Part shown: positions 10,336 through 38,117 of the stretch, piece by piece
Layout: every line of letters begins with the position of its first letter
Position numbering within the stretch: the stretch's first letter is position 1
Notes under the pieces: generated by a model
Databases searched by the model: none
Seen by the model: only the letters and a program-made list of their open reading frames with translations
Told to the model about the DNA's origin: nothing
Assembly: GCA_965224025.1 (NCBI GenBank)
Contig: OZ245033.1
Coordinates: 2,464,001 to 2,528,000 of the forward strand
From: Candidatus Multivorans sp.
GTDB taxonomy: Bacteria > Acidobacteriota > Thermoanaerobaculia > Multivoradales > Multivoraceae
Reading direction: 5' to 3'
DNA: 64,000 bases
Translations under genes and position numbers: made by a program

Positions 10336-11086
10336 TCACGAGGGGCTTCTCCGCGGCCGTGTCCGATAGGAGGAGCCCTTTGTGGCAAGGATGTGGGCGT
10401 GGTGGGAGAGGCGGTCGAGCAGGGCCGTGGTGAGCTTCTCGTCGCCGAATACGCGGACCCATTCGGAGAAGGCGAGGTTGGAGGTGACGATGGTCGAGCG
10501 GCGCTCGTAGCGGTCGGCGAAGACGTTGAAGAGCAGCTCGCCGCCGGCGCGGTCGAGGGCACGAAGCCGAGCTCGTCGCAGATCAGGAGGTCGATCCGCT
10601 GAAGCCGCTGCTGGAGGCGGCCCAGCTCCCGCTGGTCGCGGGCTTCGATCAGGTCGCGGACGAGGTCGGAGGCCTTGCGGAACCAGACCCGGCGGCGGCG
10701 CTTCGCGGCCTCGATGCCCAGCGCGATCGCGAGATGCGTCTTGCCGGTGCCGATGGGTCCGACCAGGACGACATCGTCGCCGCGGTCGATGTAGTCGCAG
10801 GCCGCCAGCTCTCGCAGTTCGGCTTGGACACTCCTTGCAGCGCCTCGAAGTCGATCTGCTCGAGCGTCTTGCGGTCGGGGAAGCGGGCCGCCCGCGGCCG
10901 GCGCTCGACGGCGCGGGCCTCCCGATCCCGGATCTCGGCCTCGAGCAGTTGCCAGAGGTAGTCCTCGTAGTCCCACTGCGCGTCCTGGGCCTGACGCGCC
11001 CGCTGCTCGTAGTCGCGCAGCACGGAAGGCATCTTGAGCGTCTTGAGGCCCTCGGCGATGACGGCTCTGCGCGCGGCCCGGCTCAC
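10336..11086 (-). CDS. istB: IS21 helper ATPase IstB (frameshifted near 10825 and 10560)
   Basis: Walker A GPIGTGKTHLA, DLLICDELGF and ALLDRLSHH are spread over three frames. Confidence 0.85.
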
Positions 11087-12594
11087 GATGCCGCCTCCTG
11101 AAGCAGCACGTCGAAGTCGGCGGTGCGAGCGCTCTCGACCTCGTGGCCCCGGAGCGGCTCGGGCACCTCCATCCGGGGCGCGGAGCTTCGCTCGACAAGT
11201 CCCAGCAGGTCGAAGCGGCCGGCGGCCAGGGCTTCCTCGAGAGCGGAGGCGACCTCTTCGCTGCCGTGGTCCACAACCACGCTCAGCAGCTTGGCGAAGA
11301 GCCGCGCCGTCTCCAGGGCGCCGTGCCGCAACTCCAGCATTCTCCATAGCTTGCGGTACGCCGGACCGAGCTCTGCGAGCAGCTCCGGAGCGACTTGGCG
11401 CACCGCTTGAGGTTTCCGAGACAGCTCCTCGAAGTAGTGCGCGTAGCGCACCAGGCGCTGTCCCGGCCGCACAAGGTCGCAGCGGTACTCCGCGTCGCGA
11501 CAGGAGAAGACGATGTCGCTGACGCCGACGAGGGCGTGGATCTCGAGGCTCTTCCAGCGCGAGGGAACCGAGTAGGTGGCGCCGCCCAACTGCACCGTCG
11601 CCCGCCGCGAAGCCCGCACGATCTTGAGCTTCCTTGGCTCAAAGCCGGCCGCCGGCAACTCTCGCAGCGCCTCCTGCTCCTCCTCCCACCGGGCGCGCTC
11701 ACTGTGTGCCGCGTCGACCGAAGCCAGCACCTCGCCTGCGATCTGCTCCAGAGTGCGCCCTTGGGGTACCGGACTCATGTGAGCCAGACGGATTCCCTTG
11801 CCGCGAGACTCCACGCTCCCCTTGTCGTGCCCCTCGCCGGGGCGGGCGAAGCACGGCTCGAACAGGTAATGGCTCACCAGCGCCTGGAATCGATCCGTCA
11901 ACTGACGCTCGGTGCCGACCCGGCGACGCACAGCCGCACTCAGATTGTCGTAGACCAGACGCAGCGGCACGCCGCCGAAGTGAGCGAACGCCCGCACATG
12001 GCCGTCGAGGAACGCCACCTGGTCGCAGCGGTCGTAAAGCCACGCGAACGAACGGCCCGAGTACGGCAGGTGCAGCAGGAACTTCCACACCCGGTGAGCC
12101 ACGCCGTCCTCCTCCACCGTCACCTCGAAGAACCCGGGTGGCGCGCTCCGCGCCACACGCGAACCTCTCCGGGTGCGAGTCATCGAGCACACGGAAGGCA
12201 GTCCACCTGGCCGCACTCGCCGGCACGGTGCACCAGCGGAATAAACGTCTCCCGCCGCTGACGCTTCCACTCCCGCACGTAGCTGCGCACCGTCGTGATC
12301 CCCGACCTCGTAGCCATCCTCCAGCAACTGGCGATGAAGACGCACAGCCGTCAGACGCTGCTTCGCCGTTGTCCGGCGAGACCATGTCGTCAACAACTCC
12401 TCCAGACGAGGCGCCACACCCTCCGTCACCAACCGGCGCCGGGGCTTGCTCTCCACCCGCACCGGCTCGCTCTGATCCAGGTACTTGCGCACCGTGTTGC
12501 GGCTCACACCGTGCTCGCGGGCCACCGAGCGCTGGCTCCGACCCTCCCTCAGCACCTGGTGCCGAATAACATGAACCTGATCCATCCTCAGCAA
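11083..12594 (-). CDS. istA: IS21 transposase IstA (extra G near 12300 and a 68-bp insertion)
   Basis: HTH (GVSRNTVRKYL), GQVD|FFEV, YDNL and GHDKGSVE. Confidence 0.9.
   Translation of the reverse strand: MLRMDQVHVIRHQVLREGRSQRSVAREHGVSRNTVRKYLDQSEPVRVESKPRRRLVTEGVAPRLEELLTTWSRRTTAKQRLTAVRLHRQLLEDGYEVGDHDGAQLRAGVEASAAGDVYSAGAPCRRVRPGGLPSVCSMTRTRRGSRVARSAPPGFFEVTVEEDGVAHRVWKFLLHLPYSGRSFAWLYDRCDQVAFLDGHVRAFAHFGGVPLRLVYDNLSAAVRRRVGTERQLTDRFQALVSHYLFEPCFARPGEGHDKGSVESRGKGIRLAHMSPVPQGRTLEQIAGEVLASVDAAHSERARWEEEQEALRELPAAGFEPRKLKIVRASRRATVQLGGATYSVPSRWKSLEIHALVGVSDIVFSCRDAEYRCDLVRPGQRLVRYAHYFEELSRKPQAVRQVAPELLAELGPAYRKLWRMLELRHGALETARLFAKLLSVVVDHGSEEVASALEEALAAGRFDLLGLVERSSAPRMEVPEPLRGHEVESARTADFDVLLQEAAS
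12133..12200 (-). repeat. 68-bp double-hairpin insertion element, copy 1 (inside istA)
   Basis: Interrupts the codons GAC|TTC of the QVDF motif; 57/69 aligned positions identical to 36841-36909. Confidence 0.8.
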
Positions 12595-34845: not shown

Positions 34846-36309
34846 TCAACGGCGAACCTGAGCGAGTCGCCGGCGGAGCCGCGAGGCATCGGGGCGCCCC
34901 GCTTCCTCGGCGAGGTCGAGCGCCTTCTCGAGCTGCGCGGCGGCGGGGTCGTCGAGTCCCGAGGCCGCCATTGCTTCGGCCACGTTCTCGAGGAGCTGAA
35001 TCAGAGCGCCCCGGGTCGAGGGATCCTGGGGGCGCGCGCCGTAGGCGCGGTCCAGTGTCTCCACGGTACGAACGACGTCGCCTCGTTCCGCACTGATCAG
35101 GGCGACGAGGAGCATCATGTTCACGTCGCCGGCGGCCCGTTCCAGAGCTTCGTCCGCCATTGCCAGGGCTCCGGTCTGATCGCCGCTCTGGAAGAGGGCG
35201 CGGGCCAGGAAGGCAGCGACGCCTTCGAGTTCCGGGTGCAGGTCGTACGCACGGCGGGCAGCCGCGAGCGAGCCCGGCTGGTCGCCCGATGCCGCGAGCA
35301 CTTCGGCGAGGGCGAAGTGGAACTCGGGCCGCAAGGCGTCGACTTGGATGCCGGCCAGGAGCTCGCGCTGCGCGAGGTCGAGTTCGCCGTGGACGCGGTG
35401 GGCGTTCGCGCGGCGCAGGTAGCTCCGAGCGTCGAGCGCTAGTTCGTGGACGCTGGAGCGGATCGGGTCGTTGCGGTAGTTGATTCGTCCCAGTGAACGC
35501 GCGGCGGCGGCGATCTGTTGCCCGCGTTCGCGGTCGCCGGCCCGGGCATGCGCCTGTGCGAGGGTGACGGCGAACGATCGGTTCTCGGGCGCCAGTTCGC
35601 GGGCGCGTGACAAGTGTCGGACGGCGGCGTCCGCGTCGCCTGCGGCGAGGGCCAGCCGGCCCAGGCCGGCGTGGGCGTGGGCGTTGGCCGGCATGAGTCG
35701 GGCGGCCTGCTCGTACTCCCCGGTGGCGGCGTCGAACCGGCCAGCCCGCTCCAGGGCCTCGGCGTAGCGGGCGCGGCCGGGAGCGTAGTCGGGGTCGAGG
35801 TCGAGGGCGGCGCGGTAGAGCGGAAGGCTGTCCGCGGCGGAACGCTCGTCGATCAGGGCGGCGAGGAGGTAGGGCCAGCGGAAGGTCCGTGGTGACAGCT
35901 CGTGGGCCTGCCGGTAGGCGGCGATCGCTTCTTCGGTGAAGGTGTGCGCTTCGAGTGCCATGCCGTAGCCGCCCCAGGTGTCGCCGCTTTGGGCGTTGGC
36001 GCGGAGGTCGGCCTGGAGGGTTGTGAGCCGTTGGCGAACGGCGGGTTCGGCGCCGTCGAGTTGGGGGGTGGGGATCTGTTGGGCGGGGAGGGTGGCGGCG
36101 GTGGTGAGGAGAAGAATGGTTGCGAACGAGAGTCGCGGAGACCGGCGCGCGGGCGCGCCGGATGCCGGCCGGAGGCCGGCGTACGCAGCGGGAGGTCTCG
36201 GCTTCAGGGAAGGCGTAGCGCTGCCGCAACGTCGCCGGCCGGAGGCCGGCGTACTCAGCGGGCGGGTGTCGCCGGGCCGAGGCTCTCTGCGCGTTTGTCG
36301 GGTCGTCAC
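34846..36309 (-). CDS. Tetratricopeptide-repeat protein (start uncertain)
   Basis: Repeated A...Y..A..L.P helices; signal-like ATILLLTTAATLPAQ; possible GTG at 36309 coupled to the CRTAC1 stop. Confidence 0.8.
   Translation of the reverse strand: MTTRQTRREPRPGDTRPLSTPASGRRRCGSATPSLKPRPPAAYAGLRPASGAPARRSPRLSFATILLLTTAATLPAQQIPTPQLDGAEPAVRQRLTTLQADLRANAQSGDTWGGYGMALEAHTFTEEAIAAYRQAHELSPRTFRWPYLLAALIDERSAADSLPLYRAALDLDPDYAPGRARYAEALERAGRFDAATGEYEQAARLMPANAHAHAGLGRLALAAGDADAAVRHLSRARELAPENRSFAVTLAQAHARAGDRERGQQIAAAARSLGRINYRNDPIRSSVHELALDARSYLRRANAHRVHGELDLAQRELLAGIQVDALRPEFHFALAEVLAASGDQPGSLAAARRAYDLHPELEGVAAFLARALFQSGDQTGALAMADEALERAAGDVNMMLLVALISAERGDVVRTVETLDRAYGARPQDPSTRGALIQLLENVAEAMAASGLDDPAAAQLEKALDLAEEAGRPDASRLRRRLAQVRR
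36164..36262. repeat. Two direct copies of a REP-like palindrome (family B)
   Basis: gccggccggaggccggcgtac(g/t)cagcggg at 36164-36192 and 36234-36262; a related inverted copy lies at 54474-54499. Confidence 0.8.
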
Positions 36310-38117
36310 GGTGTCTGTCCTTCGCCGCGGATGAGCTCGATGACTTGGTTGGCGGCGGCGCCGTCGAAGGTCTCGGCGAGGCCGTCGGGCCAGACGACGT
36401 CGAAGCTCTCGACGGAGTCGGCGGTGCCGAGTCCGAGGTGTGCCGTTGCCGGGCCGGCGGAGAGGTAACTGCCGGGAGGCAGGACGTGGAGCAGCCGCGC
36501 GCCAACTGCGGTGTGGGCGGTGATCCGGGCGCCGATCGCTTCGCGGTTGAGGCGCGGATCGATGGCGCGGATCTGGAGCCAGTTGGCGGCGCCGGTTTCT
36601 TCGCCGGGACCGTCGGGGTCGATGGTCAGGTTGCGCAGCAACTGGATATGCCCGTCCAGGTTGGCGATCACCAGGTCGAGGTCGCCGTCGCGGTCCAGGT
36701 CGGTGGGAACGAGCGCCCGGCTGAGGCCGAGCTCGGTCCAGGGCAGCTCGGAGGAGGCGTCGGTGAAGCGTCCGCCCTGGTTGATCAGGAGCAGATTGGG
36801 TTCGACGTAGTCGGACCAGAATGCGGGCAGGATGCCCGGGTGCCATCCGGGCGCCCGATGACGGGCGCCCGGACTGGTTCGCGGGTGGCGCTGGAGAGCG
36901 CCACCCGGGTTCCCGGGCGGCGTCAGTGCGGAGGGCCGCCGTTTGACGGCGCCGTTGGCGACCGCGATGTCGAGATCGCCGTCGTTGTCGGCGTCGAAGA
37001 AGGCGGCGCCGAAACCGGTCAGATCGAGGCTGGCGGCGCCGAGGTCGGATTCGATCGTCGCGTCCTCAAAGCCGGGCAGCATGAGATTGCGGTAGTACGT
37101 GTTCGTCTCGGTGATCAGGTGGGTAACGAACAGGTCGAGGTCGAGGTCGAGGTCCGCGTCGCCGGTGGCGATGCCCATGCCGGCCTCGCTGTTGCCCCAA
37201 CGGTTGAAGGCCGACCCCTGGAGAACGCCCTCGTCGACGAAGCTGGCGCCGCCCTGGTTGACCCACAGGTTGTTCGGGTCGGCGTCGTTCGCCACGTAGA
37301 GGTCCATCTCGCCATTGTGGTCGAAGTCGGCGGCGACGACGCCCAGGCCGGCATCGGAGACCATCGAGATGCCGGCTGAGGCGCTCACGTCCTCGAAACC
37401 GGCGCCGCCCCGGTTGTGCAGCAGCACGTCGCTCAGTCCCTCGAACTCGGTCGGCCCGCAGAAATCGCGCCGGCCGCCGTGCTGGGAGCAGACCCGCTCC
37501 GGGTCGAAGGCGACGTAGCGGGCGACGTAGACGTCCAGATAGCCGTCACGGTCGAAGTCGAGCAGGGCGGCGGAGGAGGACCAGCCGGGTGTGGCCGCGC
37601 CCCATGCCTCGCTCCGATCCGTGAAGACACCGTCGCCGTCATTCAGCAGCAGACGGTCGGGACCGACGCGGGTCATGTAGAGATCGAGATCGCCGTCGTT
37701 GTCGAGGTCGCCGGCGGCGGCGCCCATGCCGTCGCCATCCAGCCCGGCCGCCGTCGTTGCGTCGGTGAAGCGGCCGTCGTCCTGTTGCTGGTAGAACCGG
37801 CTGCCGGAGTCTTCGGAGGCTCGCGTTGGTGCGATCAGGTAGAGGTCGAGATCACCGTCGCTGTCGGCGTCGAAGACCGCGACGCCGCCGCCCATCACGG
37901 CCGGCATGGGGTAGGTCGAGTCCGTGCCGGTCCTGTAGATGAAGTCGATGCCGCTCGCGGCGGCTACATCGACGAAGCGGGCGGCCACGGCGGCCGCCGC
38001 CGGACCGGCGACGGACGTCGGGTCCGTTGGTCCGGAAGCCGGGTCCGAGGGCGGCGAGCAGCCGCCCGCCAACGCGCTGAGGAGGCCTATCCAGAAGCCC
38101 GTATCCGCTGCCCGCAT
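36306..38117 (-). CDS. CRTAC1-family lipoprotein (FG-GAP repeats plus ASPIC/UnbV domain)
   Basis: Lipobox AGGC; repeated DxDxDGDLDL; AGMGIATGD; C-terminal AIGARI..GSYLS..HLGLG..WPDG. Confidence 0.92.
   Translation of the reverse strand: MRAADTGFWIGLLSALAGGCSPPSDPASGPTDPTSVAGPAAAAVAARFVDVAAASGIDFIYRTGTDSTYPMPAVMGGGVAVFDADSDGDLDLYLIAPTRASEDSGSRFYQQQDDGRFTDATTAAGLDGDGMGAAAGDLDNDGDLDLYMTRVGPDRLLLNDGDGVFTDRSEAWGAATPGWSSSAALLDFDRDGYLDVYVARYVAFDPERVCSQHGGRRDFCGPTEFEGLSDVLLHNRGGAGFEDVSASAGISMVSDAGLGVVAADFDHNGEMDLYVANDADPNNLWVNQGGASFVDEGVLQGSAFNRWGNSEAGMGIATGDADLDLDLDLFVTHLITETNTYYRNLMLPGFEDATIESDLGAASLDLTGFGAAFFDADNDGDLDIAVANGAVKRRPSALTPPGNPGGALQRHPRTSPGARHRAPGWHPGILPAFWSDYVEPNLLLINQGGRFTDASSELPWTELGLSRALVPTDLDRDGDLDLVIANLDGHIQLLRNLTIDPDGPGEETGAANWLQIRAIDPRLNREAIGARITAHTAVGARLLHVLPPGSYLSAGPATAHLGLGTADSVESFDVVWPDGLAETFDGAAANQVIELIRGEGQTP
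36841..36909 (+). repeat. 69-bp double-hairpin insertion element, copy 2 (in frame inside the CRTAC1 gene)
   Basis: Perfect stems tccgggcgcccg-atga-cgggcgcccgga and cgggtggcgct-ggag-agcgccacccg; homologous to 12133-12200. Confidence 0.8.

Follow-up and report, generated by a model that had tools for sequence, protein, structure and literature searches.

Why does a CRTAC1-like gene of Candidatus Multivorans sp. carry a 69-nt segment that folds into two hairpins, and why does a related segment lie within an unrelated IS21-family istA gene nearby? Both genes are located in a 64,000-nucleotide stretch (contig OZ245033.1, positions 2,464,001 to 2,528,000; hereafter the window), with the CRTAC1-like gene at 36306–38117 and istA at 11083–12594, both on the minus strand. 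We refer to the segment as the core, and to its representatives in the CRTAC1-like gene and istA as copy A and copy B respectively. The core is very probably a genus-specific repeat of the repetitive extragenic palindromic (REP) type that forms a mosaic system with a second repeat, REP-A, and owed its movement to a trans-acting REP-associated tyrosine transposase (RAYT) since lost from this genome.

The double-hairpin element

Copy A occupies 36841–36909 on the plus strand, and scores 60.1 bits with nhmmer and 93.6 bits with a covariance model of the core (model R1). Hairpin 1 is formed by pairing of 36846–36857 with 36862–36873, extended by 36842–36845 with 36875–36878, and hairpin 2 by pairing of 36882–36892 with 36897–36907; both stems are perfect (12 bp, or 16 bp counting a one-base bulge, and 11 bp). 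Folded as RNA, copy A has a predicted energy of -59.7 kcal/mol (z -8.49), with none of 200 shuffles equally stable, and folded as DNA -38.7 kcal/mol (z -9.78). The opposite strand folds with nearly equal stability.

Copy B (12133–12200, minus strand) is 68 nt long and scores 49.4 bits with nhmmer. Copy A and the reverse complement of the copy B interval share 57 identities over 69 columns with a single 1-nt gap, and chance likeness is excluded because the genome contains 165 copies. The stems of copy B are decayed. A first-pass annotation made from the sequence of the window had described the element and its match to copy B, the two perfect stems of copy A, and two paired substitutions preserving pairing in copy B, and these descriptions hold upon alignment and folding: the double substitutions replace C-G with T-A in stem 1 and T-A with G-C in stem 2, although four further stem positions are unpaired. 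RNA folds of copy B have energies of -33.0 kcal/mol (z -1.6; 15 of 200 shuffles equally stable) and -32.3 kcal/mol (z -2.2; 6 of 200), and z ranges from -1.6 to -3.8 over RNA and DNA folds together. The two copies are oppositely oriented relative to their host genes, as had been recorded, copy A being antisense and copy B sense. Each is followed directly by TTC, another point of that annotation borne out by the sequence; the trinucleotide lies at 36910–36912 (plus strand; GAA on the coding strand) for copy A and at 12130–12132 (minus strand) for copy B, and we infer that it is the target or cleavage motif.

A genome-wide repeat family in mosaic with REP-A

Two rounds of nhmmer over the whole genome (5.14 Mb, 67.6% G+C, three contigs) identify 165 core copies, 164 on contig 1 and one on contig 2, of which 76 are on the plus strand and 89 on the minus strand; the pair seen in the window thus belongs to a repeat family. 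There are 131 full-length copies (77 of 68 nt, 40 of 69 nt, 10 of 67 nt and four of other lengths), and GGTTC follows 98 of these. Each of the two unlike hairpins of the core is GC-rich and has GGTTC after it. The full-length copies are diverse, with a median identity to the core consensus of 91%, 127 distinct sequences among the 131, and no identical group larger than three. An Rfam search with the core found no family near threshold, the best match scoring 20.6 bits where the gathering score is 52. Two sites contain two head-to-tail core copies with no spacer (contig 1 1443993–1444128 and 4082830–4082965).

The stems of the core are kept by compensatory change. Sampling 41 copies from high to low scores gives 94.1% paired stem cells, compared to 29–47% when the partner is slid, and double-sided changes are present in eight of the 27 stem pairs; the observed values were reached by at most one of 500 shuffles (0–1). 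Stem mismatches comprise 51 G·T and 80 A·C (not counting a single pair already G·T in the consensus), an asymmetry that leans slightly towards the strand reading GAAC-hairpin and is too weak for use.

The second repeat, REP-A, is a unit of ~33 bp consisting of the hairpin GCGGGC-N5-GCCCGC followed by G-TTCCCAGG. A motif search permitting up to two mismatches finds 229 matches genome-wide, of which 156 have an empty junction (hairpin then TTCCCAG), 42 are filled by the core, and 31 are otherwise arranged; in all 42 filled units the core lies precisely at that junction. On the opposite strand GAAC stands before the REP-A hairpin and before each of the two core hairpins. The core and REP-A together constitute a mosaic repeat system resembling the bacterial interspersed mosaic elements (BIMEs). 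Tandem REP-A units are frequent; 10 of 24 close pairs are spaced at 33 bp, and other pairs at 27, 39, 42 bp and so on. An example is at contig 1 124743–124810, and within the window REP-A is represented only by the unit that copy A splits.

The CRTAC1-like locus

The CRTAC1-like gene encodes a 603-residue protein with FG-GAP repeats and a UnbV_ASPIC domain, assigned from its translation, Pfam matches and orthologues. Copy A supplies residues 405–427, and its description as 23 codons without a stop proved correct inside this reading frame; the FG-GAP_3 and UnbV_ASPIC domains flank it. Orthologues within the genus are 72–87% identical. We place the insert in a variable surface loop of the beta-propeller protein, because the length of the loop varies among orthologues and because alignment to the solved human CRTAC1 (PDB 9etn_A) leaves residues 407–469 unaligned.

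Comparison of orthologues (15 resolved in the genus, with model R1 run on 16 orthologue loci) shows that the core is missing from 14 of the 15, among which TTC is present where the core is not. The sole carrier is congener G044, whose insert is at the orthologous site, is identical at 68 of 69 positions, and is accompanied by a further 27-nt REP-A-like unit. Congener G016, which has the closest protein (87% identity), contains the 27-nt unit and lacks the core. In the remaining orthologue, that of G042, the covariance model finds no core. Empty sites in orthologues, which the first-pass annotation had called for, are therefore abundant, and the 99-nt loop of eight orthologues equals the loop of this genome minus 69 nt. 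The 'empty' sequence is itself a REP-A copy, however: the core-less loop matches the REP-A unit at 28 of 30 positions, as counted from the sequences. Copy A divides this REP-A-like unit into a left part at 36821–36840 (plus strand, hairpin at 36823–36839; identified from the REP-A census and from comparison with G016, G044 and G051) and a right part at 36910–36917 (plus strand), at a junction identical to that in 42 other REP-A copies.

The loop at this site (36817–36935 and orthologous loci) is hypervariable, with lengths of 78, 87, 99, 126, 168, 180, 189 and 195 nt, every one a multiple of three, and repeat-like units are gained and lost at it within the genus. The 99-nt form in G051 holds a perfect REP-A hairpin.

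Sequencing runs support the insert as well. Contigs from runs X1 and X2 span both junctions of copy A with no differences, and runs X3 and X4, metagenomes from two other studies, contain the core and the further 27-nt unit at the CRTAC1-like site. Taken with G044, these four runs establish that the insert is real, that it is present in at least two species, and that the neighbouring units are polymorphic.

Empty sites and insertion junctions

Five congeners served for comparison of the in-frame copies in a uvrD-like helicase gene, ychF and gyrA. G051 has all three inserts, whereas none of the three sites is filled in G016, G010 or G003; in G001, resolved at gyrA and the uvrD-like site, the former is filled and the latter empty. 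In G003, which keeps the flanking base, the sequence of the empty site is GAA^C. In all five genes for which junctions could be compared (CRTAC1-like, istA, uvrD-like, ychF and gyrA) the core lies immediately 5' of a native TTC, equivalent to 3' of GAA on the other strand. The far end of the core reads GGCA or GGAA, and none of the five comparisons reveals a target duplication; the GAA present at both ends in uvrD-like, ychF and gyrA is explained by the core's own GGAA end. In the four targets of unique sequence (istA, uvrD-like, ychF and gyrA) homology to the core is limited to GAA/TTC. Insertion immediately 5' of TTC without target duplication recalls, by analogy, the 'peel and paste' transposition of the IS200/IS605 type.

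The gyrA site has features of its own. The insert in G051 includes an extra 18-nt partial duplication of the core's first bases, again a multiple of three, and G001 has a diverged core copy at the same site, and because of this diverged copy we regard the gyrA insertion as older than the others.

Candidate transposase and distribution of the repeats

This genome has no Y1 transposase detectable with PF01797 in an assembly rated 100% complete, and tblastn with the RAYT of a congener gives a best E value of 0.44; nor was a TnpB found in it. Among 41 congeners, 25 have Y1_Tnp matches above the cut-off, with zero to three matches per genome. At one locus of G051 (L062) a 214-residue RAYT-like gene has REP-A arrays on both sides and one core copy beyond each, in inverted orientation. 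The product matches PF01797 at 33.7 bits (cut-off 23), the REP-associated tyrosine transposase model NF047646 at 79.8 bits, and the IS200 model NF033573 at 23.9 bits (cut-off 55). An HVH motif and a Y-I-x-x-N-P stretch, which we take to be RAYT motifs, are visible in its translation. A core copy flanks a 99% identical gene of G016 (L059) and the Y1 gene of G012 (L055), in each case on a single side, and in G044 a core lies ~450 nt from a Y1 match. A Y1 or RAYT gene flanked by the same hairpins, for which a search had been suggested, is thus present in congeners, where L062 has the hairpins on both sides and inverted, and absent from this genome.

The RAYT-like genes of G016 and G051 are between the same two neighbours, and the syntenic place here (contig 1, ~632,033–633,293) contains other DNA and no RAYT. 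Beside this locus a 1.15-kb segment (contig 1 632032–633181; L062 856–2001) is inverted in G051 relative to this genome and is missing in G016, such that all three species show a rearranged neighbourhood.

With model R1 the core is found in 17 of 18 congeners of a first draw (three to 95 matches each, and none in G011) and in five further congeners (21 to at least 150 matches), and it is absent from 12 genomes representing 12 other genera of the same order. G051, in which the RAYT is present, has at least 14 core copies of one identical score, compared to four in this genome, a pattern suggestive of a master sequence in the presence of the enzyme, the equality being one of scores only.

Searching public genomes with the RAYT protein as query yields 564 relatives in many phyla, from which 80 loci were kept (L094–L173). 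Among these the core occurs only in one titled Candidatus Multivorans sp., whereas the bare REP-A hairpin is present at 35 of the 80 and its tagged form at 12; at three loci inspected closely the hairpin forms inverted repeats around the gene. The relatives, which include L095, L096 and L098, are from Latescibacterota, Dehalococcoidia, Planctomycetota, Verrucomicrobiota and others, and are 45–66% identical. The RAYT enzyme and the REP-A hairpin thus seem to be conserved together across phyla, and judging from this distribution REP-A looks like the cognate repeat of the RAYT clade and the core like a genus-specific addition.

Copies within genes

We counted a copy as intragenic when the open reading frame is open through the core and a coding G+C signature is present on both sides. 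By this strict test at least 11 of the 165 copies are intragenic and the other 154 lie outside such reading frames. A looser gene call puts 24 of 164 copies within reading frames; most of the extras have a poor upstream coding signal and probably precede the true gene start, while at least one of them (contig 1 at 4,596,399) looks real as an intragenic copy. Nine of the 11 are antisense to their host gene. Two frames are used, encoding peptides of the types PGGALxRHPRTSPxARHRAxGW and PGWRxxAPPANQSERxSSSARM. In a consensus-like core composed from two copies, an A at the TTCAC position creates a stop in the first (PGGAL-type) frame, and the in-gene copies carry G at that position. Pfam names nine of the ten hosts other than the CRTAC1-like gene: a prolyl oligopeptidase, an amidase_3, a UvrD-type helicase, GyrA, a PQQ dehydrogenase, an alpha/beta hydrolase, a PD-(D/E)XK (AddB/RecB-like) nuclease, a hydantoinase and YchF.

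The situation in istA differs from that in the CRTAC1-like gene. The 503-residue reading frame was delimited by three-frame translation and alignment to 477-residue homologues, and its rve match is under the Pfam cut-off. Copy B sits between GAC and TTC, the latter being the first Phe codon of a conserved DFFEV motif, and all six aligned IstA homologues (477–482 residues, 71–85% identical) read ...GQVDFFEVTV... without the insert, so that the empty istA site that had been sought is found in protein homologues. Because copy B is 68 nt long it shifts the istA frame, and a 1-nt G insertion ~100 nt upstream (in the G run at 12300–12303) restores it. Together the G insertion and copy B add 69 nt, and the reading frame remains open with 33 conserved codons (12201–12299) out of frame. 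As judged from this sequence istA is probably a pseudogene, unless the G run is an assembly error. Of the two insertions into protein-coding genes, that of copy A preserves the frame; that of copy B does not, and its host looks dead. A second, partial IS21-type copy is present at contig 1 3670874–3672780 (93–99% identical), with an internal deletion matching 11708–12424 of the window. Because the deletion has taken the copy B site this copy is of no use as an empty site, and the protein homologues were used instead.

Origin of the element and alternative explanations

The first-pass annotation had proposed either a tiny non-autonomous mobile element tolerating coding sequence, comparable to Rickettsia palindromic elements (RPEs) or HUH-mobilised elements, or a structured RNA insert removed from mRNA. 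The second proposal finds no support. The first is borne out by the number of copies, the empty sites, and the RAYT in congeners, and the core and REP-A were most likely mobilised by a RAYT. Such an enzyme, an HUH transposase of the Y1 class, would recognise single-stranded hairpins with a GAAC tag, cleave 3' of GAA and of the GG(C/A)A end, and paste the released strand 3' of a further GAA, as IS200/IS605 and TnpA-REP, described in PMC8266576, suggest by analogy. The core would often land inside REP-A because the TTC/GAA motif lies within the GAAC before every hairpin. Copy A would have landed in this way in the REP-A-like stretch of the CRTAC1-like loop, surviving on account of its 69-nt length and the lack of a stop in the frame concerned, while copy B would have landed in the istA of an IS21 element and broken the gene. 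More generally, open-frame copies whose length is a multiple of three would survive in tolerant loops, and others would break genes, as in istA, or be purged. Following loss of the RAYT, the ~165 copies of this genome are probably an immobile and slowly decaying population.

Several observations weigh against RAYT mobilisation. Without a Y1 gene, ongoing mobilisation in this genome is impossible, and the link to a RAYT rests on relatives. The G051 protein falls 0.2 bits under the cut-off of 80 of the RAYT model, and a strong core copy is beside the gene at only three of the 11 Y1-bearing loci examined, the other eight encoding paralogues of 48–51% identity with no strong core copy. Unlike in the described REP/BIME-RAYT systems (REPtrons), neither hairpin has GTAG or CGTC beside it in the listed copies, GAAC preceding the hairpins instead. 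Targeting of the lagging strand might, in our expectation, predict a replichore bias in core orientation, and there is none (47+/63- versus 29+/25-, p = 0.24), although the test is weak, the cumulative GC skew of the assembly being irregular. Core subfamilies also correlate with the type of flank, and some of the apparent insertions into REP-A may represent composite amplification or gene conversion and not independent hits.

This last observation is a component of one of three other explanations, each of which accounts for part of the data. The core could be a palindrome-associated transposable element (PATE), that is, a miniature IS200/IS605 derivative whose movement depended on a classical TnpA(Y1), accompanied or not by TnpB, and not a REP served by a domesticated RAYT. 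Two subterminal hairpins, the lack of terminal inverted repeats and of target duplication, insertion beside a fixed short motif that the far end resembles, and the weak match of the flanked gene to the IS200 model all agree with this origin. That match is far below its cut-off, however, whereas the RAYT model gives the score quoted above; the gene is at one syntenic locus in two species with few matches per congener, which is typical of RAYTs and unlike a multiplying insertion sequence (IS); this genome has no detected TnpB; and the repeats form BIME-like mosaics and tandem arrays. We thus consider a PATE improbable. Spread mainly by homologous recombination, gene conversion or replication slippage, and not by a transposase, would fit the core-less CRTAC1 loop, which has the orthologous 99-nt length and yet reads as REP-A in a conversion-like manner, the gain and loss of units of 27, 18 and 33 nt at the same sites, and the way that subfamilies follow flank classes. 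It is quite improbable as the principal route given that the istA, uvrD-like, ychF and gyrA targets share only GAA/TTC with the core and that the junctions are base-exact in five of five cases.

Least probable of all is that the core is primarily a functional structured RNA (a terminator, an mRNA stabiliser or a small RNA) with the intragenic copies as by-products. Its hairpins are very stable and kept by covariation, and spacers between convergent genes hold 39 of 124 intergenic core copies compared to 388 of 1995 spacers overall (from crude gene calls), an enrichment that is also expected for REPs at 3' ends according to PMC3733652. No Rfam family matches at threshold, however, copies are present in both orientations and those in genes are mostly antisense, and since both strands fold alike the structure singles out no RNA strand; the exact TTC junctions and the RAYT link would be left unexplained.

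Within the RAYT interpretation a broader scenario can be considered, which we regard as possible but doubtful. A clade of RAYTs that do not use GTAG would have kept the hairpin GCGGGC-N5-GCCCGC with a TCCCAG tag across phyla, and in one acidobacterial genus this system would have gained a two-hairpin passenger. If so, the filled and empty pairs (GAA^C) would be the first natural before-and-after record of a RAYT integrating REPs, the genome without a RAYT would let the decay of orphaned REPs be followed as a natural experiment, and the in-frame gyrA, uvrD-like and ychF copies, which are retained across species, would possibly have become harmless or useful loops.

Comparison with known systems

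The closest counterparts are the REPtrons of E. coli, Pseudomonas and Stenotrophomonas, as presented in PMC8266576 and PMC3733652. Common to these and the repeats described here are a short palindromic repeat at high copy number and mostly in intergenic positions, mosaic and tandem arrangement with a second repeat, compensatory change in the stems, a Y1 HUH gene flanked by inverted copies (here in congeners), and loss of the RAYT from some genomes, as in the present one. In contrast to the REPtrons, the core consists of two unlike hairpins in ~68 nt rather than a single 20–40-nt palindrome, this genome is without a RAYT, and the junctions suggest a cut inside the tag (GAA^C), where the enzymes studied in those accounts have CT or CA sites. 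PMC3733652 mentions acidobacterial Y1 genes that form a group of their own and have inverted repeats lacking GTAG on their flanks.

The REPINs described in PMC3116915 are likewise units of ~70 bp in which two parts can form hairpins, and are considered there to be what a single-copy RAYT replicates, and the RAYT-bearing G051 has its many same-score copies while the RAYT-less genome has at most three identical ones. As presented there, however, a REPIN is composed of inverted copies of one REP that form one long hairpin, whereas the core hairpins are unrelated and side by side. Elements of the IS200/IS605 family and PATEs, with IS608 as the model in PMC8266576, share with the core the subterminal hairpins, the absence of terminal inverted repeats and target duplication, and an insertion point next to a short defined sequence similar to the opposite end of the element; they differ in that the protein associated with the core scores as a RAYT and not as an IS200 TnpA, and in the lack of TnpB in this genome. 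No full-length parent IS was seen, and no search for one was made in congeners. Miniature inverted-repeat transposable elements are less similar, as the core termini are not inverted repeats of one another and there is no duplication at CRTAC1 (in the G044 form) or istA.

For the intragenic copies the relevant comparison is with REP dimers within genes, which according to Di Nocera et al. (2013, PMC3733652) encode 20–30 residues and are often in replication and repair genes (UvrD, RecBCD), and with the Rickettsia RPEs, which that article treats as the classic in-gene case. Both are in-frame palindromic inserts of 20–30 residues that leave the host protein intact, and among the hosts of the core are a UvrD-type helicase and a RecB-family nuclease, which belong to functional classes listed there. 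The core differs from both in sequence and in its lineage (Acidobacteriota, Thermoanaerobaculia). It differs from the RPEs further in having a candidate transposase in relatives, none being reported for RPEs, and the likeness to RPEs is one of behaviour, in-frame insertion.

The findings bear on annotation: the core explains 23-residue extra loops in proteins that are conserved apart from them (the CRTAC1-like protein, GyrA, the UvrD-like helicase and YchF), and the istA reading frame (11083–12594) should be flagged as a probable pseudogene. The spread of REPs is described as still poorly understood in PMC8266576, and the genus offers exact insertion junctions, a candidate enzyme, and genomes with and without that enzyme; within the literature searched we found no paper on the repeats of this genus. 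In-frame REP-type palindromes in genes are already described in PMC3733652, and because the general phenomenon is described the value of this system is as a well-documented example and not as a new principle. What is particular here, by comparison with the known systems, is the GAAC tag, the two-hairpin unit, the base-exact junctions, and the contrast between RAYT-plus and RAYT-less genomes.

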